From IMG/VR virus record IMGVR_UViG_2563366838_000005: DNA of 48,520 bases; one strand, given 5' to 3'. Source of the stretch: a virus (lineage: Duplodnaviria > Heunggongvirae > Uroviricota > Caudoviricetes). Positions 96-44,329 of the stretch are shown piece after piece. The translations under genes were made by a program, and so were the position numbers. The notes under the pieces were generated by a model. That model had not been told where the DNA came from and ran no database searches. It saw only the letters and a list, made by a program, of their open reading frames with translations. Numbering within the stretch: the stretch's first letter is position 1; each line of letters opens with the position of its first letter.

Positions 96-782
96 TTGAT
101 CCTCCCGATCATTGCCAAGACGCCAAGAGGAATTGATTTTGGTTCGGGGCAGGGAGACTACGCGCGAATGCTCAGGGCAAAGGGATATAACCTGCATGAT
201 CTCGAGCTTTTCCGCCGTAAGGGCGCTGGAAACACTCTGGATAGGGCCGCAACAAACCGGATGATTGATACGCTGGTGGACGACTTAAAAACGCGAGGGC
301 GTTACGACTACGTGATTTGCGATAGCGTTTTGAACTCGGTCGATAGTGTCGAGGCTGAATGGTCCGTTCTGACGGTTCTGAAAGGCCTGTGTAAAGCTGG
401 TGGGTCAATATTCTTTTCTGGCCGTAGCCGTGGAGAACTGGAAACAGTCCTGAAGCAAACACAAGCGGCGAGTTCCAAAAGCCGGCTTTATTTTATTGAT
501 CATGACGGTTTTACCGCGTTGTACCGGAAGGGGCACTGGTTTTACCAGAAGTTTCACTCTGATGAGGAAGTGAAGCAGTTGTGTCGTGTACATGGTTTCA
601 GGATTAAGCGGTCAATATTCAACTGTAAGAGCTGGTATTTGCACGTCATTAACGATGATTCCCTTAGTTGGGCGAGTCTGGAGAAAGCTGTTCGTTTTGA
701 GTTTGAGTTGCCGTTGCCTGGTGGTTCAACAATCGGACGATCTGATGATGTGCTGGCGGCTTTCCGGCCGTTGATTAAGTAG
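1..782 (+). CDS. 3' portion of wrap-around gene: ParB-N-like domain fused to class I SAM-dependent methyltransferase (continues from 47834..48520; in-frame ATG at 48 is internal)
   Basis: Reading frame from ATG 47834 stays open to window end and is in phase with ORF 48..782; C-terminal part has GxGxG motif I (IDFGSGQG) and a YDYVICD motif II-like strand; no DPPY/NPPY motif seen. Confidence 0.65.
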   Translation, partial: SHLEKTTYIQTYAQLMRLRNGGSLKSNLYESLILPIIAKTPRGIDFGSGQGDYARMLRAKGYNLHDLELFRRKGAGNTLDRAATNRMIDTLVDDLKTRGRYDYVICDSVLNSVDSVEAEWSVLTVLKGLCKAGGSIFFSGRSRGELETVLKQTQAASSKSRLYFIDHDGFTALYRKGHWFYQKFHSDEEVKQLCRVHGFRIKRSIFNCKSWYLHVINDDSLSWASLEKAVRFEFELPLPGGSTIGRSDDVLAAFRPLIK

Positions 783-798
783 TGTGTAGGAGGCGCTG

Positions 799-1518
799 GT
801 GGCTGACAGAATTGAGATAAAGATGGATTTTTCTTCTCAGGATATTCAACGACAACTCCAGCGCCTTGAAGAACGCGAATTGCCGTTCGCAATGGCGCTT
901 GCGGCAACCAGAACGGCAAAGGCTTCTCAGGCTGCGATTAAGAATGAAATTAATCGGGTATTTGACAGGCCCACGCCGTGGATTCAGAACTCTACTTACG
1001 TTTTGGCCGCAAAGAAGAGTGATCCTACAGCCATTGTGTATGCTCGTGAATGGGGAGGAACGCCAGCCCCTGTAACGTTGACTCCGCAAATCGAAGGTGG
1101 CCAACGACAGTACAAACGCTCAGAAGGGGCGCTAAGGGCTGGTGGATATTTGCCTAACGGCTGGCAGATTGCTCCTGGTCCCGGCGCAAAGCTGGACAAA
1201 TACGGGAATATTTCGCGGGGGCAATTACAGCAGGTCTTATCTGGCCTAAGAGTTCAGCGAGATGCGCATCAAAATCGCCGTCAGGGCAAGCCTACGGAGT
1301 TTTTTGTTGTTCGACCTGGTACAAGTAACCCGCTTCAACCAGGCGTCTGGCAGCGCGTTGGGCGGCGTCCTACGTTGATCCTTACGTTTATCCAGCAACC
1401 TAACTATTCGCAGCGTCTTGATTGGCATGGCGTGGCGCTGCGTGCTGGTGAGGATGCGTTTGCTGATGAAGTCACAAAGGCTATTGATGACATTCTTTCC
1501 AAGACCTTCTCTCGTTAA
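799..1518 (+). CDS. Hypothetical protein (239 aa), tightly linked downstream of the ParB-methyltransferase fusion
   Basis: Long ORF starting 17 nt after the previous stop; no motif I recognise. Confidence 0.5.
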   Translation: MADRIEIKMDFSSQDIQRQLQRLEERELPFAMALAATRTAKASQAAIKNEINRVFDRPTPWIQNSTYVLAAKKSDPTAIVYAREWGGTPAPVTLTPQIEGGQRQYKRSEGALRAGGYLPNGWQIAPGPGAKLDKYGNISRGQLQQVLSGLRVQRDAHQNRRQGKPTEFFVVRPGTSNPLQPGVWQRVGRRPTLILTFIQQPNYSQRLDWHGVALRAGEDAFADEVTKAIDDILSKTFSR

Positions 1519-5330: not shown

Positions 5331-6901
5331 ATATTCTTGATCGAGTTATTGCGCCGTTTTCACCTCAGAGGGCATTAAATCGAGCTTTGGCAAGAAAACG
5401 GTTAGAAGCACTTGAAGGTATTAATAACCTTGGATATTCACGTCATGGTGCAAGCACTCATAAAAAATCATTAAGGGGTTGGTTTAGTAAAGCTGGTTCT
5501 CCTGATGATGATATTGTTAAAAATATAGATAAATTGCGTGAGCGTTCTCGTGATCTCTTCATGGGAAACCCGCTATCGGTTGGCGCAATAAAAACTATCA
5601 GGACAAACGTTGTTGGTTCCGGTTTAAAACTAAATGCGAACATTGATGCCGATTTCTTGGGGATGACGCAGGAAGAAGCGCGAGCATGGGAAAAGCATGT
5701 TGAGCGTGAGTTTAGATTATGGGCTGATTCTCCAAATTGTGATGCATCAAGAATGTGTACTTTTGGACAATTGCAATCATTGGTCCAAATATCTGCGTTA
5801 ACATCTGGCGATATATTTGCTGCGCTACCAGTTATTAAGCGTAAGGGTGTTATATATGATTTGTGCGTCTATTTAATTGAAGGTGATCGTGTTTGCAATC
5901 CAGAGGATCGTTTTATACCAAATCTTTACGGTGGCGTAGAGGTTGGTGAATTTAGCGAGCCTGTGGCGTACTGGGTTGCAAAACATCACCCAGCCGGGAC
6001 TTCTGGTTTTGTAACCCGCAAGTGGGAACGTATTCCCGCATATGGGAGTAAAACAGGAAGAAGAAATATTCTGCATGTCATGCAGGATTTTGAAAGGCCT
6101 GGGCAACGTCGTGGCGTTCCTGTCCTTGCTCCTGTTATTGAAGCATTGAAGCAGTTAGGACGATACACCGATGCTGAATTGGTTGCTGCGGTTGTGTCAG
6201 GGATGTTTACTGTCTTTATTAAAACAGACGCTCCTGATGGACCAGTCGGTGAATCGGGTATCCCTCAGTACGAGCAGATCGATAACCATGATGATAACAC
6301 CCAAGAAATGGGGAATGGCTCCATAGTAAGTTTGGGTGAAGGTGAGTCGATAGATACAGCAAATCCCGGGCGACCAAATACGGCATTTGATGGTTTTGTT
6401 GTCGCCATATGCCGTCAAATTGGGGCTGCTTTAGAACTCCCTTACGAACTCTTGGTAAAGCATTTTACAGCAAGTTATAGCGCAAGCAGGGCCGCATTAC
6501 TTGAAGCCTGGAAAATGTTCCGTATGCGACGTGACTGGATGGTTCAGTCATTTTGCCAACCGATCTATGAGGAATGGTTGGCCGAAGCCGTTGCTAAAGG
6601 TCGTGTTATTGCCCCTGGTTTTTTTTATGGGCCTGAATATCGCGCTGCATGGAGTGGCGCTCAATGGTATGGCCCATCACAAGGCCAATTAGATCCCCTT
6701 AAAGAAGTCAAAGCTGCAAAACTGCGTGTTGAGGAAACATTCTCTACCCGTGAAAAGGAAGCGGCTGAAATGTCAGGTCTTAACTGGGAAGAAACCGCAC
6801 AAATTTGTGGCAGAGAAGAGAATGCTCGCCGTGAGTTGGGGCTGATTACGCCTCCTGTTTCTGAGGTAAATGAACAAAATATGGAGACAGATGATGCCTA
6901 A
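5327..6901 (+). CDS. Portal protein, lambda gpB-like
   Basis: 524 aa ORF in the canonical position after gpW; overlapping start/stop with neighbours. Confidence 0.8.
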   Translation: MNILDRVIAPFSPQRALNRALARKRLEALEGINNLGYSRHGASTHKKSLRGWFSKAGSPDDDIVKNIDKLRERSRDLFMGNPLSVGAIKTIRTNVVGSGLKLNANIDADFLGMTQEEARAWEKHVEREFRLWADSPNCDASRMCTFGQLQSLVQISALTSGDIFAALPVIKRKGVIYDLCVYLIEGDRVCNPEDRFIPNLYGGVEVGEFSEPVAYWVAKHHPAGTSGFVTRKWERIPAYGSKTGRRNILHVMQDFERPGQRRGVPVLAPVIEALKQLGRYTDAELVAAVVSGMFTVFIKTDAPDGPVGESGIPQYEQIDNHDDNTQEMGNGSIVSLGEGESIDTANPGRPNTAFDGFVVAICRQIGAALELPYELLVKHFTASYSASRAALLEAWKMFRMRRDWMVQSFCQPIYEEWLAEAVAKGRVIAPGFFYGPEYRAAWSGAQWYGPSQGQLDPLKEVKAAKLRVEETFSTREKEAAEMSGLNWEETAQICGREENARRELGLITPPVSEVNEQNMETDDA

Positions 6902-24202: not shown

Positions 24203-24245
24203 TATGATTGTGGGTGTCTGGTTGGAAAGTGACCAGATATGGAAA

Positions 24246-24354
24246 CAAAAAGCCCGCAGATAAATCTGCGGGCTTCTTGCGACATCCACGGAAAACCAAC
24301 AACAACAATCCATGGGCGCCTCGACAACTCCCATTATACGTTGGTTTTCCGTGG
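24246..24354 (-). ncRNA. Candidate CopA-like antisense RNA over the repA leader
   Basis: Minus-strand hairpin plus T5 at 24246-24274 and a 15 bp perfect inverted repeat (24286-24300 / 24340-24354) just upstream of the repA start. Confidence 0.3.
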
Positions 24355-24370
24355 ACGCAAGAGCGAACAT

Positions 24371-25219
24371 ATGGATAGACCAATGCCGTCTCTACGTTCA
24401 GCTTACGTTTGTAATTTGTCGCCGGAGTTCCAGCCTCCAAAGCACCATACGCACAAGCTGCCGCTGGTGTTATCTGATGCTTTACAGCGCATTAATGGGC
24501 GTGATCTTACGTGTGAGGTTGCGTTCTACGTTAATCAACCGTCAGAGCGGAAGCGCCGGATAAACGAGCATCGTCGTCGGGCGATTAATGCTGTGATCGC
24601 TGCGATTTTGCACCATGTAAACATCATTTCTAAGCGGGTTCTGGCTAGTGCTGAGGCGTTGGCTGATTTTTGCGGCCTGTCTACCGTATCCGAAGCTGGG
24701 AACAAGTCTATAACGCGCTGTACAAGGGCGTTGTCGCAACTGAAAGCGTTAGGTTTTATTGATTATGAACGTCGCTGGGATCGGGTGAATAAACAGTATT
24801 GGCCAGCGAAAATAGAGATTCGTGATCAACTGCTGGAAACCGTTGGTATTACTGAACAAGCATGGAGACGTGCGGTTAGCCAGAAACTTAATTACTTCAA
24901 TGCGAAGAATAGCGAACGGCTTAAAAAAGCGATAACGGAGGCTGATTATAAGCGTATTGTTATTCAGGAGCAGATGGAGAATGTATGGCGTCAGAGGAAG
25001 ACGGCCAGAGAGATAAAGGCAAAACAGAAAGCAGCGGAGAGAGCTGCGCGTCTTGTTCGGGAAAAGGGAGAGGCCGAACTTCGTCATCAAATCACCAGAG
25101 AGGTTAGTCAGGAATTTGCTGATGGCATGTATCCTGGTGCTGACCTTGCATATTTACGATCCCTCGTTGAGCAGCGTTATAACAGGTTAAGAAAGACCTG
25201 GAAATCACTCCAACATTAA
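24371..25219 (+). CDS. repA: Plasmid replication initiator RepA, IncFII RepA1-like (ORF also open from 24239)
   Basis: Segment CGLSTVSEAGNKSITRCTRALSQLKALGFIDYE resembles IncFII RepA1 as recalled; basic C-terminal region; internal ATG at 24371 gives a 282 aa product. Confidence 0.7.
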   Translation: MDRPMPSLRSAYVCNLSPEFQPPKHHTHKLPLVLSDALQRINGRDLTCEVAFYVNQPSERKRRINEHRRRAINAVIAAILHHVNIISKRVLASAEALADFCGLSTVSEAGNKSITRCTRALSQLKALGFIDYERRWDRVNKQYWPAKIEIRDQLLETVGITEQAWRRAVSQKLNYFNAKNSERLKKAITEADYKRIVIQEQMENVWRQRKTAREIKAKQKAAERAARLVREKGEAELRHQITREVSQEFADGMYPGADLAYLRSLVEQRYNRLRKTWKSLQH

Positions 25220-28294: not shown

Positions 28295-28357
28295 ACACAA
28301 TGCGCAAAGTGTCATTTTGACACTTTGCGAGTGTTAATATTGTTCGAGGAGGATGCT

Positions 28358-28537
28358 ATGACGGGTTATGAATTGAAATTATGGCGTCGTGGGATGAATT
28401 GGACGCAGGAGCGAGCCGCTGAAGAGTTTGGGATATCGTTGGCTACATATAAGCGATATGAGAAGGGTGAGCCGCCGAGGGTCATTGAGATGGCCATTCG
28501 CGTTCTGTCGTTTGACGATATGGTTAAGGATCTTTAA
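28358..28537 (+). CDS. Small HTH protein (XRE-like)
   Basis: 59 aa from ATG 28358 with GAGGAGG SD; WTQERAAEEFGISLATYKRYE HTH. Confidence 0.55.
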   Translation: MTGYELKLWRRGMNWTQERAAEEFGISLATYKRYEKGEPPRVIEMAIRVLSFDDMVKDL

Positions 28538-28677
28538 CACCTTGATAAAGATGCGATTCTGTTAAGGCTGCAAACCCTTGTATGGGAAAAGGTTAAAGTG
28601 TCGTCAGAATTGGAACAAGGGATCAAATGATCCTTTACGGATCGTTTTATGGTGGTGTAATGTAAGCGCCAGAAAGA

Positions 28678-28704
28678 CAAAAACCGCCTTGCCGGGCGGT
28701 TTTC
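28678..28704. terminator. Hairpin terminator, A-run upstream and T-run downstream (possibly bidirectional)
   Basis: aaaaccgcc ttgccgg gcggtttt. Confidence 0.5.
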
Positions 28705-29265
28705 AGTCTGAAATTTAAATCTTGCTTGGTAGGCTGGATTTAAAAAGACACCTCTTGATTGGGGCGGCTTTCTTGCGTCTAAAGATAATCAAATCTTTTT
28801 GCGCCTGCAACCCCTTTTTTACTGGTGCCCATTTCAGACTCACGCTCGCGTCGTTGTCTTTGCCACTTCGTTGGGTTCGGTGTTTTTGGGCGAAGTGGCG
28901 CGCGGGTATGCGTACAAGGGGAAAGTGTGCTGACGCAAGCCAGGAACAGCGATCTAAACTAAGTCGAGTCTGAGAAAGGCAGGAGTGCGACAACTCGCCT
29001 GTGCTCTATGAGCAGAAGAAGGTATATCAGACGACCAATGGCATGATTGTGGGCCACAGGGCGCACACGGCGGCGAAGCATTGGAAACGATGTGGAGCTA
29101 TCTGGTGGCATGAGTTCCGGTACTCGATCTCGAGCTTTTTTTGATGCTTTTGAGAAGGGGCCGGAACTCCGGTAAAGGGCACCTTGTATGGGGGGAGGGG
29201 GGGTTGTGTCTTAAGGAAGATCTAATACGATATTGCTTTACCCTTATATCTAAAAGGAGATTTCT

Positions 29266-29901
29266 ATGGGGATGCTGGTGGCGTTTATTATTAGCCTGAT
29301 TTTGTGTTTCTTCGTAGTTCGTGGCGCATATCGGAAACAATGTGCCTCGTCTTCTGGTGGTAAGTTCAAAGCTGTTTTAGTGAGTGGCTTTCTCGGGATT
29401 GCAACTTTTGTAGTTGTTAATACTCTTGCGGCTGTGACCTTGATCCCAGAAGACTCTAACACTGCGGCTACTACCGGAGCTGCTTTTGATGGTGTGACCG
29501 TAGATAAGTTTAAGAAGTTATATAATGATGACCTTGAAGGCATCGCTACATCAGGAAAAACCACCTCCACTATAAGAATTAAGTCTGTTAAACAAGGTAA
29601 CAACACCGTTGAATTTGCCATCAACTCATCTGTTAACGGTCGGGCTAGAGTTGATAAGGATGGGAAGATTTCTGAGTTATTATGGCGAGTATCCAAGCCT
29701 AACTCTGATTCCTTGCTTTCTATGGCCGTAGCAGTTGAAGTCTTGGATGCGTCAAGTGAAAGAGACACCGTGATTGCGCAGTTAGAGCAGATTGTTAAAT
29801 CTGGTATGCAGAAAGCTGAGTTCAAGACTAAGAGAGGCGAGTATTACGTTTCTCGTGACAAATCAGGGCATGTATCGCTACTGATTACACCGAAATATTA
29901 A
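29266..29901 (+). CDS. Membrane-anchored hypothetical protein (211 aa)
   Basis: AGGAG SD; two N-terminal hydrophobic segments; stop followed by hairpin terminator. Confidence 0.6.
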   Translation: MGMLVAFIISLILCFFVVRGAYRKQCASSSGGKFKAVLVSGFLGIATFVVVNTLAAVTLIPEDSNTAATTGAAFDGVTVDKFKKLYNDDLEGIATSGKTTSTIRIKSVKQGNNTVEFAINSSVNGRARVDKDGKISELLWRVSKPNSDSLLSMAVAVEVLDASSERDTVIAQLEQIVKSGMQKAEFKTKRGEYYVSRDKSGHVSLLITPKY

Positions 29902-29910
29902 GAATTGAAG

Positions 29911-29937
29911 AAGCGCCCAAATCGGGCGCTTTGTTTT
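29911..29937. terminator. Terminator hairpin between convergent genes
   Basis: agcgccc aaat cgggcgct followed by ttgtttt; sits between convergent stops at 29901 and 29936. Confidence 0.6.
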
Positions 29938-31087
29938 ATGGTTTTGCACCTGCGGCCAGTTTATCCGCAGATATTTTTATCAGTTCCTGTAGTGTCTTGG
30001 CTGGCAGGTTTGCATCCAGAACGCTGAGTATGCTGTTGTGATCAGCTTGGTCGACTACTTTGCCTGTCGGTGGTAGTAGCTTGAGCTGAGGATTCAGGTT
30101 TTCGTCAAAGCTGATAAGTGCTCTGGCGTTTCTGAGCAGATCAAGAAGTAAGGCTGATATCACATTTTCCTGAGTCATTGCTGGCAGATTTAGCACCGCT
30201 TTGGTTTTCCCTGTTGCCTTGTCAAACTCCTTGATTAGTTCCTTCCTGTAGTTCGGTTCCGTTAATAGCCGATTATGCTCTGTTGCCGCGCGGATAATCG
30301 TTTTTTCCTGGTACAGTCGTTTAGCCAGATCGCGCTCGTACTGTGTTTTTAACACGCTGCTGATAGCGTTAAAGGCTTCAATGTAGGCCAGCTTGATATC
30401 CTTCACGCCTGGACCGTCGATACTTTCCATGAGCAAGGTAAATCCGTCTTTTGTCATGCGATAGATTGTTATTTCGCGGTCGCTTCCTTCCAACGGTCGT
30501 TGCTCTTTAAAGAAATGACGCGCCGCAGCTGTGCGAGGAATGCGTAACGCATCGATGGCCATAACGATGGAATTGTTTGTGGTGCTGAATGCTTGGGCAA
30601 CATCGGCTGAGGTTGTGAGTGGCTCGTTGTTGCACACCTTAACGTAATACATTGGTTTGGCGTTGAGCGTATCGACAACCTCACGAGCATTGTTTGGTGA
30701 GACGGTTACGGTCGCGGCCGTTTGCGCGTTCTGGCTGAAATAGCAGTCTTCCAGCCGTTCGAACACATCCCACGCCTGATCGGTTTCGAGCATTTTAGCG
30801 TGACGTGCAGCCCCGCGTTCTGTCCAGAGGATGAGAGAGCGAGTTTTGGGGGAAATTTGTACCTCATTTTGTGACTCGTTTAAAACTAGTCGCAAATTTT
30901 TGAGTTCATCACCAACAGCTTTAAAGAAGTGCTTCCCCTCAATGAACCGAGTTTTATTTTCATGGTGATTTTGCTGTATACGGATTGCTTCTGTTCCATA
31001 AAGGCGGGCGAGTAGCTCAGTTGTGATTACTGGAATCTGATTATGCAGGATAGGCTGTAGGGTGTTAACGGTCCGAAGCGTTTTCAT
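29936..31087 (-). CDS. Phage antirepressor / regulatory protein (ORF6N-like N-terminus, Rha-like C-terminus)
   Basis: 383 aa; domain layout recalled from antirepressor families; start overlaps upstream small ORF. Confidence 0.65.
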   Translation of the reverse strand: MKTLRTVNTLQPILHNQIPVITTELLARLYGTEAIRIQQNHHENKTRFIEGKHFFKAVGDELKNLRLVLNESQNEVQISPKTRSLILWTERGAARHAKMLETDQAWDVFERLEDCYFSQNAQTAATVTVSPNNAREVVDTLNAKPMYYVKVCNNEPLTTSADVAQAFSTTNNSIVMAIDALRIPRTAAARHFFKEQRPLEGSDREITIYRMTKDGFTLLMESIDGPGVKDIKLAYIEAFNAISSVLKTQYERDLAKRLYQEKTIIRAATEHNRLLTEPNYRKELIKEFDKATGKTKAVLNLPAMTQENVISALLLDLLRNARALISFDENLNPQLKLLPPTGKVVDQADHNSILSVLDANLPAKTLQELIKISADKLAAGAKP

Positions 31088-31371
31088 TTTGCACCTCCCA
31101 TAACTACTTTGGTTACGAGGGAGATTTTTGCGTCAGAAACAGCGTTATCGTTGCTGGCGATGCGCATAGCTTCGCGCTCGATGATTTCAGCCAGGCGGAA
31201 TTTATCGGCGTATGAGGCTTTCTTGAGAAGGATCTTTACGAGATTGACGTAATAGTCATGGGGTAAGTTTGTCATGATGATAGTTCCAGTTTTGATATTG
31301 GAATAATCACCACCGCTGACGCCAATCAGTGAGGTGGTGAGACGTACAGGGTTGGCGTAACCGGTCATCAT
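31084..31371 (-). CDS. Hypothetical protein translationally coupled to antirepressor
   Basis: 95 aa ORF whose stop overlaps the antirepressor start. Confidence 0.45.
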   Translation of the reverse strand: MMTGYANPVRLTTSLIGVSGGDYSNIKTGTIIMTNLPHDYYVNLVKILLKKASYADKFRLAEIIEREAMRIASNDNAVSDAKISLVTKVVMGGAK

Positions 31372-31441
31372 GATACCCGGCGAGCCTTACGGCTCCCCCG
31401 CACGCCCCACCATAATTCGGGTGTAGCTGTGCTTTACGCAT

Positions 31442-31462
31442 AAAAAAACCGCTAACGCGGTA
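31442..31462 (-). terminator. Candidate minus-strand terminator in antirepressor operon leader
   Basis: On minus strand: 5 bp stem accgc/gcggt, 4 nt loop, then T7. Confidence 0.35.
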
Positions 31463-31608
31463 TGCGCCATGATGATTATCGGGACGCCAATCCCGACCGT
31501 AGATTTTGCTACGGCTCGGAAAGTGTCCACCAATGGCGCATTCATGTCAATACGGCAGGATTTTAACAGAGACAACCACATAGCGTGGGTTTATTGGTAG
31601 GCAGAAAC

Positions 31609-31635
31609 AAAAAAACCGCCCTATTGAGGACGGTT
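31609..31635 (-). terminator. Candidate minus-strand terminator in ORF-poor region
   Basis: On minus strand: 8 bp stem with one G-U pair, 6 nt loop, then T7. Confidence 0.45.
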
Positions 31636-32032
31636 CTTTCGTGCTGATCGGATTCGCGGTCCTTTCAGCATTACGTTGTTGTATAAACAACCACGCAAGC
31701 ACAAGCAGCAAGTTAATTTTACCCAAAAGGTAATAATAGTCCACTATTATGCTTCAAAAAATTGTGGTTCTTGTTGTGCCTGCAAACTCACAGATTGTGG
31801 GTAGGTTACTGATTTTGTGAAAATAAACGAGTTTTTTCGTTTAATTTCTTTCCTATTACTAATCTTAAAATAATCGTAAAATACCTGTGGACCTTCCCGC
31901 CGATTCGCACCCGGGCACCGACTTTAGGGGAGGATTCTCCGTTGCCGTACATGCAAGCACAAGCAGCCGTGCTTGCTCTCGCGTTGTTTTCGTCGGTGGG
32001 GATGCCGTGAAACGGCCTGTAAGGGCCATACA

Positions 32033-32155
32033 ATGAAAAAATACTGTATGTGTATTTTTATCGTTGTTACTGGGGCTTTGTTTACGCCACATGGGGAGGG
32101 TTGGAAGATTACTGATAACGCTCTGAATGTGACGATAAACATTAGCAGCAAGTAG
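32033..32155 (+). CDS. Candidate small hydrophobic peptide (40 aa)
   Basis: ATG 32033; hydrophobic core CMCIFIVVTGALF; strong terminator 6 nt after the stop; weak SD. Confidence 0.3.
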   Translation: MKKYCMCIFIVVTGALFTPHGEGWKITDNALNVTINISSK

Positions 32156-32160
32156 CGATT

Positions 32161-32185
32161 AGGCCCCTTCGGGGGCCTTTTTTTA
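32161..32185 (+). terminator. Rho-independent terminator
   Basis: aggcccc ttcg ggggcct followed by T7. Confidence 0.7.
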
Positions 32186-44253: not shown

Positions 44254-44329
44254 GGCCCCTTAGCTCAGTGGTTAGAGCAGGCGACTCATAATCGCACGGT
44301 CATCGGTTCAAATCCGGTAGGGGCCACCA
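44254..44329 (+). tRNA. tRNA with CAU anticodon, most like tRNA-Ile2 (lysidine type); could be scored as tRNA-Met
   Basis: 76 nt cloverleaf with 7 bp acceptor stem, D-arm GCTC/GAGC, anticodon loop CTCATAA, T-loop TTCAAAT, encoded CCA; resembles E. coli ileX as recalled. Confidence 0.8.

Follow-up and report, generated by a model that had tools for sequence, protein, structure and literature searches.

What is encoded in the gene-free stretch that follows a helix-turn-helix (HTH) gene in a phage-plasmid of Escherichia, Salmonella and their relatives? The stretch belongs to a sequence of 48,520 nucleotides from the Caudoviricetes (IMG/VR virus record IMGVR_UViG_2563366838_000005), which was analysed at its full length, is called the window below, and represents a ~48 kb element of this kind. 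Our analysis points to an answer that we consider probable: the block at positions 28622-29216 is a strongly diverged ColE1-type RNA-primed replication origin residing in a phage-plasmid, an activity that we infer from sequence comparison.

An earlier note, made from the letters of the sequence alone, had described a structured region free of open reading frames (ORFs) from 28538 onwards. The region is indeed non-coding, except that its first 93 nt (28538-28630) still belong to the upstream HTH gene, of which they form the end; the strictly non-coding part is 28631-29265 (635 nt). The ORFs within 28700-29265 are short and start mostly with TTG or GTG; searches of Pfam and PHROG gave them no family, 1-nt indels interrupt them in diverged homologues, and the substitutions in the block show no 3-base (codon) periodicity; a hidden protein gene or pseudogene was rejected on these grounds. 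Both hairpins named in the note are present, GCCACTTCG/CGAAGTGGC at 28862-28899 and GAGTTCCGG/CCGGAACTC at 29112-29169, and so is the G-tract GGGGGGAGGGGGGG (G6AG7), whose actual position, 29190-29203, is shifted 5 nt rightwards from the one given for it (29185-29198). What had been called a terminator at 28678-28704 is a genuine hairpin, which the terminator scan scores as an intrinsic terminator for the - strand only (28705..28678). Folding energy is modestly better than that of shuffled sequences on both strands (z -2.5 for the + strand, z -3.2 for the - strand).

Homologues of the block were gathered from plasmids, viral contigs and metagenomes, and 15 sequences were aligned. Most are 98-99.8% identical, and six, comprising Salmonella pAR-0407-1, a Yokenella contig and several metagenomic contigs, are 83-95% identical. 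The conserved stretch begins at the stop codon of the HTH gene and stops sharply at 29216. Between these limits the DNA is 88-90% identical in Salmonella/Yokenella-type relatives, compared with 70-78% for the flanking genes (five comparable loci), and the adjacent 126-aa protein is merely 66% identical in diverged relatives. GTDB genomes, scanned for exact 22-mers and for the neighbouring protein, yielded no more distant homologues, and in plasmids carrying homologues of the HTH gene the locus is not syntenic. In a Vibrio campbellii phage-plasmid the syntenic position is occupied by an ORF-poor gap, without a homologous RNA. This distant element (L031, plasmid NZ_CP050481.1), whose homologue of the 126-aa protein is 39% identical, has at 5376-6227 an unannotated gap of ~850 bp, which includes an unannotated ORF, is not homologous to the block, and contains two copies of a module made of a terminator, AAATAAAGA repeats and then GACGAAAAGTCCTA...GAAGGCCGGGCA.

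The pattern of substitution points to a structured RNA read from the + strand. Seven base pairs have changed on both sides, against 3.3 +/- 1.1 in shuffled alignments and 0-3 in slid controls, and the double-changed cells number 18 where 5.0 +/- 1.9 are expected, a value reached in 0/500 shuffles. Five of the compensated pairs fall in the hairpin at 28862-28899 and two in a GAAA-tetraloop hairpin at 29078-29093. Such compensation among relatives shows that selection acts on two hairpins at least. Numerous one-sided changes from G-U to G-C or A-U preserve pairing on the + strand only and leave A-C mismatches on the - strand; a covarying RNA on the - strand was therefore rejected, the framing by promoter and terminator also being found on the + strand only. 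One metagenomic variant (L023, 83% identical) lacks 50 nt corresponding to window positions ~28859-28908, that is, the hairpin at 28862-28899 and a few flanking bases, and another (L028, 95% identical, ~3x coverage) lacks 22 nt at the centre of the RNA. These deletions may be tolerated, or may reflect defective copies or assembly errors.

Conservation of this kind bears on whether the block does anything at all. It might be an inert relic, left behind when a small ColE1-like plasmid long ago co-integrated with the phage-plasmid, and kept by linkage or spread by recent recombination, and this would fit the frequent co-integration of ColE1 with larger plasmids (PMC8683028), the internal deletion variants and G-runs that are shorter than in ColE1. 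A relic would not be expected, however, to be clearly more conserved than the flanking coding genes, to have its stem changes compensated, or to retain the slippage-prone G6AG7 run in all lineages; moreover, the block occurs in 62 PLSDB plasmids, as against 63 with the neighbouring 126-aa gene. We hold this explanation to be improbable.

A comparison with ColE1 (NC_001371) was undertaken because a weak Rfam match to RNAI recurred on the - strand at the hairpin 28678-28705. In ColE1, RNAI occupies 749..645, whereas RNAII begins at ~642 and extends as far as the origin at ~1196. We built three covariance models (CMs) from about nine ColE1-family origins (10 for R3), namely R3 for the RNAII promoter and first 110 nt, R2 for the middle and R1 for the last 140 nt of RNAII, and searched both strands of the window with filters off; the calibration of these searches was rough. 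The top match of R3 in the window is at 28631-28754 (+; 20.8 bits, E 0.003), and in two Salmonella-type relatives (L003 and L019) the model reaches 28.5 bits (E 5.5e-5). R1 finds its top match at 29048-29180 (+; 18.5 bits, E 0.009), with the runner-up at 10 bits, and scores 27-38 bits (E 1e-4 to 4e-7) on five diverged Salmonella/Yokenella-type relatives. The two matches lie on the same strand, collinear and with ColE1-like spacing. R3 thus recovers the family likeness of the RNAII 5' region (promoter and stem-loops I-III), and R1 that of the 3' domain, in sequence and in structure. The ColE1 origin measures ~550 bp from the RNAII promoter to the oriV site (PMC8683028), and here the distance from the promoter at 28634-28663 to the origin-equivalent at 29170-29180, or to the end of conservation at 29216, is ~510-580 bp. 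The parts of the candidate RNA are these:

28634..28663, + strand: RNAII-like promoter, with -35 TTTACG at 28634-28639 and -10 TAATGT at 28658-28663
28670..29180, + strand: putative RNAII-like preprimer RNA of ~510 nt, its start at ~28670-28672 placed by alignment to the ColE1 RNAII start
28811..28820, + strand: C4U6 tract, predicted to pair with G6AG7 and so close the RNA body
28862..28899, + strand: hairpin with five pairs changed on both sides, whose G-U intermediates fit the + strand; within the 50 nt absent from L023
28918..28921, + strand: internal G4 run in a 47-nt invariant block, ~255 nt upstream of the origin-equivalent
29078..29093, + strand: GAAA-tetraloop hairpin with two pairs changed on both sides, aligning with the ColE1 hairpin CCAGGGGGAAACGCCUGG
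29112..29169, + strand: last long stem-loop, with a U-rich loop, aligning with the final ColE1 RNAII stem-loop (positions ~66-127 of model R1)
29170..29180, + strand: origin-equivalent CGGTAAAGGGC, aligning with ColE1 AUGGAAAAACG, its position given by alignment alone
29190..29203, + strand: G6AG7 tract, invariant or near-invariant in all homologues, 10-25 nt past the origin-equivalent

The promoter can be read as TTTACG-N18-TAATGT or, with an alternative -10 TGTAAT (28656-28661) preceded by TG, as TTTACG-N16-TGTAAT; both hexamers are invariant in the 15 homologues and the spacer is variable. GATC sites at 28621, 28629 and 28640 lie inside an inverted repeat, an arrangement also seen at the RNAII promoter of ColE1. 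Aligned element by element, the block matches ColE1 in this GATC inverted repeat, the GTAAT -10 region, the AAAAACCGCC/GGCGGTTTT stem-loop, the GGAAACG-loop hairpin, the long hairpin with the U-rich loop, and the G-run and A-run at the RNA-DNA switch. ColE1 has its G-runs at +287, +453 and +534; the block has them at +251, +490 and +523-536. Pairing between C4U6 and G6AG7 has a probability of 0.8-1.0 in 3/4 variants, and shows no covariation because both tracts are invariant.

Whole-length alignment leads to the same place. In global alignment to RNAII the block is the top-scoring segment of the whole window, and the reverse comparison agrees. Semi-global alignment against nine ColE1-like origins (71-83% identical to ColE1), with 462 window segments as controls, gives z-scores of mostly 5-11 (range 2.4-10.9), a Gumbel P of ~1e-6 for the best pairs and, for most partners, a score above all 462 controls; for the body by itself, stripped of promoter and first hairpin, most z-scores still lie at 3-6 (range 1.2-6.3). 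Standard blastn finds no ColE1 similarity for the block. A relaxed blastn search adds ~1570 weak matches at the promoter and first hairpin, and the subjects are nearly all plasmids of 2-8 kb among the matches listed; in one such plasmid (L041) the matched stretch coincides with a bona fide RNAI (56.5 bits), and R1 also matches, with 57 bits.

Two further observations were made with these models. R3 and the ColE1 nhmmer profile recurrently give a sub-threshold second match at 31562-31705 (+; 14-15.5 bits, E 0.06-0.13), seen also in L001 (7223-7373) and L022 (7107-7253) and centred on the hairpin AAACAAAAAAACCGCC...GGACGGTT; this may be merely a similar terminator between isrK and ryfA. In the Vibrio vulnificus plasmid NZ_MZ325519.1 (L042), a 25-nt hairpin with the same sequence as window positions 28679-28703 precedes by ~90 nt a PAGEV RNA (Rfam RF03037, 124 bits) at 862-1079 (+), and a weak R1 match (1153-1309, 11 bits, E 0.5) directly follows that RNA. 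PAGEV may be a Vibrionales counterpart of an RNAII-type primer region.

The likeness to ColE1 could in principle be convergence or chance, the block being a new stand-alone structured non-coding RNA of ~550-580 nt that acts in trans as a scaffold, sponge or anti-defence RNA. Its middle third has no detectable ColE1 similarity, no Rfam family is found at threshold, and a promoter and terminator of its own, strong conservation and the helix with which C4U6 and G6AG7 are predicted to close the RNA are what such an RNA would possess. Nevertheless, two independent ColE1 models place their top matches at the two ends of the block, on the same strand and in the same order and spacing, with E-values down to 4e-7 and 5.5e-5 in relatives; the weak blastn matches are almost only to small Col-type plasmids among the matches listed, and the block has no extended complementarity elsewhere in the window. 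We regard such a stand-alone RNA as very unlikely. Specific candidates were rejected separately. Rfam searches of the window and of an empty-slot relative (at gathering thresholds and at E <= 10) gave only sub-threshold matches to known RNA families, on the terminator hairpin. A type I toxin mRNA would require a conserved small hydrophobic ORF, of which there is none, and the 33-aa ATG ORF at 29045 changes non-synonymously where the stems covary. For a group II intron remnant past the terminator, the domain-5-like hairpin is absent and Rfam gives zero intron matches; for a CsrB-like sponge, ~7 GGA motifs per 550 nt (counted by eye) are about what chance provides; and for a trans-acting antisense regulator of the element's other genes, the rest of the window holds just chance-level matches of 11-13 nt.

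A ColE1-type origin would also be expected to encode an inhibitor on the opposite strand, and the block has a candidate at the place occupied by RNAI:

28672..28776, - strand: putative RNAI-like antisense RNA of ~105 nt, overlapping the first ~105 nt of the long RNA
28772..28745, 28744..28714 and terminator 28705..28678, - strand: the three antisense stem-loops, preceded by a short tail
28782..28810, - strand: candidate antisense promoter, with -35 TTGCAG (28810..28805), a 17-nt spacer and -10 TATCTT (28787..28782), invariant in the alignment

The terminator scan scores the - strand terminator at 28705..28678 as strong. A 107-nt antisense sequence folds into three stem-loops (z -3.4), a fold kept in the Salmonella variant L003 with a different second stem-loop, and the ColE1 RNAI promoter stands at the equivalent place, with the hexamers TTGAAG/TACACT. 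Rop (Rom), a small four-helix protein that stabilises the kissing complex of RNAI and RNAII, is accessory to such systems and not universal; no Rop family turned up among the proteins scanned, the small ORFs of the window having been scanned in part only.

Several observations weigh against a ColE1-type origin and have to be set beside this evidence. The promoter scan reported no promoter in the block on either strand, and the antisense promoter, as read from its hexamers, would be a weak match to consensus (3/6 and 4/6). The Rfam RNAI model (RF00106) matches at the same place and strand as the putative antisense RNA with 18.1 bits, compared with a gathering threshold of 47, and most of this score comes from the generic terminator hairpin. 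R2, which covers central RNAII around the -265 G-run, has no match in the block at E <= 10, and collinear short matches in the central region are suggested by pairwise alignment only; because R2 finds nothing, we class the block as a diverged variant and not as a typical ColE1 member. The window's own CM E-values of 0.003 and 0.009 are modest, and their calibration is rough. A nine-sequence nhmmer profile of the ColE1 origin gives E 0.12, at the 5' end and with filters off only (nothing at default settings), where the operational criterion in the literature is a match to the origin's hidden Markov model profile at E <= 0.001 (PMC8683028); the reverse profile, made from the block, finds nothing in ColE1. 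The metagenomic variants L023 and L028 have lost 50 and 22 nt from inside the block, and the extra conservation could, as far as the sequences tell, stem partly from recent exchange of the module between lineages and not from purifying selection. In empty-slot relatives a terminator stands ~40 nt past the origin-equivalent, which classical ColE1 lacks. Finally, a second origin is not needed for maintenance, given a RepA replicon and ParA.

Taken with these reservations, a strongly diverged ColE1-type origin is still our preferred reading, and it suggests a model for the activity of the block. The sigma-70 promoter at 28634-28663 would start a highly folded + strand preprimer RNA of ~510 nt, which near 29170-29180 would stay hybridised to its template, aided by the G-rich segments; the G6AG7 tract could additionally stabilise this R-loop. 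RNase H would then cut the hybridised RNA, and DNA polymerase I would extend the primer rightwards, a route that in ColE1-type origins requires no initiator encoded by the plasmid. The ~105-nt antisense RNA (28776..28672), with its three stem-loops, would pair with the 5' end of the preprimer and block primer formation, thereby setting copy number and incompatibility. RNAII-like transcripts that do not become primers would continue into the slot past 29216, here occupied by a gene for a 211-aa protein which, having its own Shine-Dalgarno (SD) sequence and terminator, would be a moron driven by the promoter of the origin. The mechanism follows established ColE1 biology, reportedly as laid out in the models of Tomizawa and Masukata. 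By analogy, we infer that the RNAs are made, that the origin fires and that it divides the work with the IncFII RepA replicon (24239-25219), with plasmid maintenance perhaps falling to one replicon and lytic or high-copy replication to the other.

The region downstream of the block had been taken in the earlier note for an accessory cargo spot, possibly with an associated RNA. The slot and its surroundings are:

29217..29935: variable cargo slot that separates the origin block from the 3' end of ant
29266..29901, + strand: gene for a 211-aa protein with two transmembrane (TM) helices, with a strong SD and a C-terminal alpha/beta domain of ~135 aa
29910..29932, + strand: intrinsic terminator common to the cargo gene and the convergent ant operon
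29936-31087, - strand: ORF6N/Rha antirepressor gene (ant), convergent with the 211-aa gene

A variable slot does exist past 29216, and in relatives it takes three states: one of 719 nt with a 211/214-aa gene, found in E. coli-, Salmonella-, Citrobacter- and Yokenella-type elements and encoding proteins 46-56% identical, one of 242 nt with a 61-aa ORF, and one of ~41 nt with nothing but the + strand terminator AAAGGGGCCGTAGCCCCTTTGTTGTT, which in these empty-slot relatives directly follows the 3' end of the block. Because the slot has these three states, the 211-aa gene is exchangeable cargo, an insertion between the RNA body and the terminator; and because one state is a bare terminator, the block appears to be a self-contained transcription unit, not just a leader. 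The ORF-free region thus does appear to encode an RNA, as had been suspected, but this is no accessory of the cargo gene: the RNA block is unchanged when the slot is empty and is more conserved than any neighbouring gene.

The description of the cargo gene itself stands up well. The ORF at 29266-29901 has AAGGAG 6 nt before its ATG and a terminator of its own, and is convergent with the ant gene. A topology check agrees with the proposed N-terminal TM helices, giving hydrophobic segments at ~2-20 and 36-60, and since the loop joining them is positively charged, the positive-inside rule would place the C-terminal part of ~150 aa in the periplasm. The AlphaFold model has a mean predicted local distance difference test (pLDDT) score of 78.3, with ~90 for residues 80-210. 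Homologues are confined to these elements, and searches returned no informative family or fold match, characterised exclusion proteins included. A role in host interaction or exclusion would be plausible for a putative inner-membrane moron expressed in the lysogen. No promoter of its own was detected for the gene, which is therefore probably read from the RNAII-like promoter and, to judge from the sequence, co-transcribed with the RNAII-like RNA.

This position of the cargo gene, directly behind the block and with no detectable promoter of its own, admits another reading, in which the block derives from ColE1 and has been exapted: it would no longer prime, and would serve either as a constitutive promoter and structured leader for the slot or as an RNAI-like determinant of incompatibility or exclusion against related phage-plasmids or small Col plasmids. 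A leader role cannot account for the conservation, since the empty-slot relatives, in which the terminator follows at once, conserve the block equally. A specificity determinant would agree with the two allelic forms of the second stem-loop, the most variable part of the 5' domain, and loss of priming with the RepA and ParA that the element already owns and with the shortening to G4 of the G-runs equivalent to the -265 and -20 runs of ColE1. The entire 3' domain up to the origin-equivalent is conserved, however, and gives the best match to a ColE1 model; this domain is needed for priming and not for antisense control. Exaptation is in our judgement unlikely, and an origin that primes replication remains the reading we prefer.

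The element that carries the block has the gene content of a phage and the maintenance functions of a plasmid. The region under study matches 72 E. coli genomes, in which 72/73 places are plasmids of 47-50 kb, and also the Yersinia phages vB_YpM_39/41/44 (n=3); the family of phage-plasmids with the block spans at least Escherichia, Salmonella, Klebsiella and Yokenella. Lambda-type terminase and contractile-tail genes are accompanied in the window by the IncFII-family RepA replicon, ParA, a HigB/RelE toxin-antitoxin pair, a CI-like repressor and, on the - strand, a P1-like immunity cassette with isrK and C4 RNAs, a small Ash-like ORF and the ORF6N/Rha antirepressor. Two neighbouring features complete the setting of the block:

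28358..28630, + strand: upstream HTH (XRE-type) gene, outside the origin and given for context only
31330-31515, - strand: isrK and C4 antisense RNA (Rfam), upstream of the small ORF and the antirepressor, in a P1/P7-like immI cassette

The HTH gene product has 90 aa in nearly all relatives and 59 aa here, through a premature TAA at 28535-28537; the gene is frameshifted in L026 and stops four codons before its end in L027, L029 and L006. As its stop codon abuts the RNAII-like promoter, the HTH protein could regulate that promoter. A second terminator-like hairpin (12 bp) acting on the - strand only lies at 28303-28329, between the + strand genes for the 126-aa and HTH proteins, and together with the hairpin at 28705..28678 suggests that antisense transcription arriving from the ant side is repeatedly blocked. 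Near C4/isrK there is also a full-length ryfA RNA (31887-32183, +; Rfam, 141.8 bits), and a tRNA-Met (CAT) gene lies at 44254-44329 (+) in the late/lysis part of the window.

In a Pfam scan of the window proteins, no phage replication protein turned up besides the IncFII RepA, and an origin that depends on host proteins alone could therefore, as a hypothesis, serve lytic or high-copy replication. MOB-suite typing in PLSDB reports zero replicons for these plasmids. A natural deletion derivative, pCREC-544_3 (L043, NZ_CP024829.1, circular, 32,182 bp), has lost ~16 kb with parA, the CI-like repressor and the early/lysis region, and has kept repA, the ColE1-like block and the structural genes; since it retains both repA and the block, it does not discriminate as a natural test of whether the origin is sufficient. 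As a speculation, its persistence without a partition system would fit a multicopy origin. More broadly, and with considerable doubt, we can envisage an element with two replicons, an IncFII RepA/ParA system for low-copy lysogeny and an ancient, protein-independent ColE1-type origin for high-copy or lytic replication, in which G6AG7 would act as an R-loop lock comparable to CSBII of mitochondrial DNA and the strong RNAII promoter as a platform for exchangeable morons, and whose RNA-primed origin would be invisible to protein-based and replicon-typing screens.

ColE1-type origins are usually a hallmark of small multicopy plasmids or of recent co-integrates, and here a deeply diverged one is apparently fixed and strongly conserved in a phage-plasmid family common in clinical and animal E. 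coli and Salmonella. If active, it would account for DNA amplification in these phages, which encode no replicase, and it would be expected to need host Pol I and RNase H, to make related elements incompatible through RNAI, and to couple downstream moron expression to replication control. A 2021 survey of phage-plasmids does not mention ColE1-type origins, and surveys by protein markers can miss replicons made only of RNA.

A comparison of the block with ColE1/pMB1 (RNAI, RF00106) highlights both a common layout and considerable divergence. The distance from promoter to origin is ~510-545 bp here and ~555 bp in ColE1. Both have GATC sites in an inverted repeat and a GTAAT -10 region at the promoter; in both, an RNA of ~105 nt on the opposite strand, a putative one here, folds into three stem-loops and ends at a terminator formed by the first stem-loop, AAAAACCGCC...GGCGGTTTT, and the 3' domain presents the GGAAACG-loop hairpin, the long U-rich-loop hairpin and then a G-run and an A-run. 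The G6 run that ColE1 RNAII has at +287, ~265 nt upstream of the origin, corresponds to the G4 run ~255 nt upstream here, and the -20 run is likewise G4 in place of G6. Unlike ColE1, the block has an extra invariant G6AG7 past the origin-equivalent and a variable gene slot or terminator directly 3' of it; it has diverged beyond the reach of blastn, of nhmmer at default settings and of the Rfam RNAI threshold, with an unrecognisable middle third, and its carrier is a 48 kb phage-plasmid with IncFII RepA and ParA instead of a small, mobilisable multicopy plasmid. The co-integrates of ColE1 with large plasmids resemble it in placing a ColE1-type origin within a larger replicon that owns a Rep protein; those are typical, recently acquired origins with rop, mob or colicin genes in IncF, IncN and IncC plasmids (Ares-Arroyo et al. 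2021, PMC8683028), whereas here the origin stands alone, is deeply diverged and is conserved across a whole phage-plasmid family.

Two other systems offer parallels of a looser kind. The interrupted G-run recalls the G5-6AG7-8 tract of mitochondrial CSBII, which forms an R-loop and primer; in both cases the tract is found on the RNA-like strand where a primer transcript, a putative one here, comes to its end, a likeness that implies no relatedness, and here it lies past a ColE1-type origin-equivalent and is also predicted to pair with C4U6. Phage P1 has its lytic replicon, repL/oriL, beside the immI c4-icd-ant operon. As in P1, the second replication function, a proposed one in our element, adjoins a C4-RNA/antirepressor operon and a RepA-type plasmid replicon is also present; unlike P1, the element has no RepL-like protein and the block no homology to the P1 replicon, and it is convergent with ant instead of downstream on the same strand. 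A lytic role for the block is put forward here as no more than a hypothesis.

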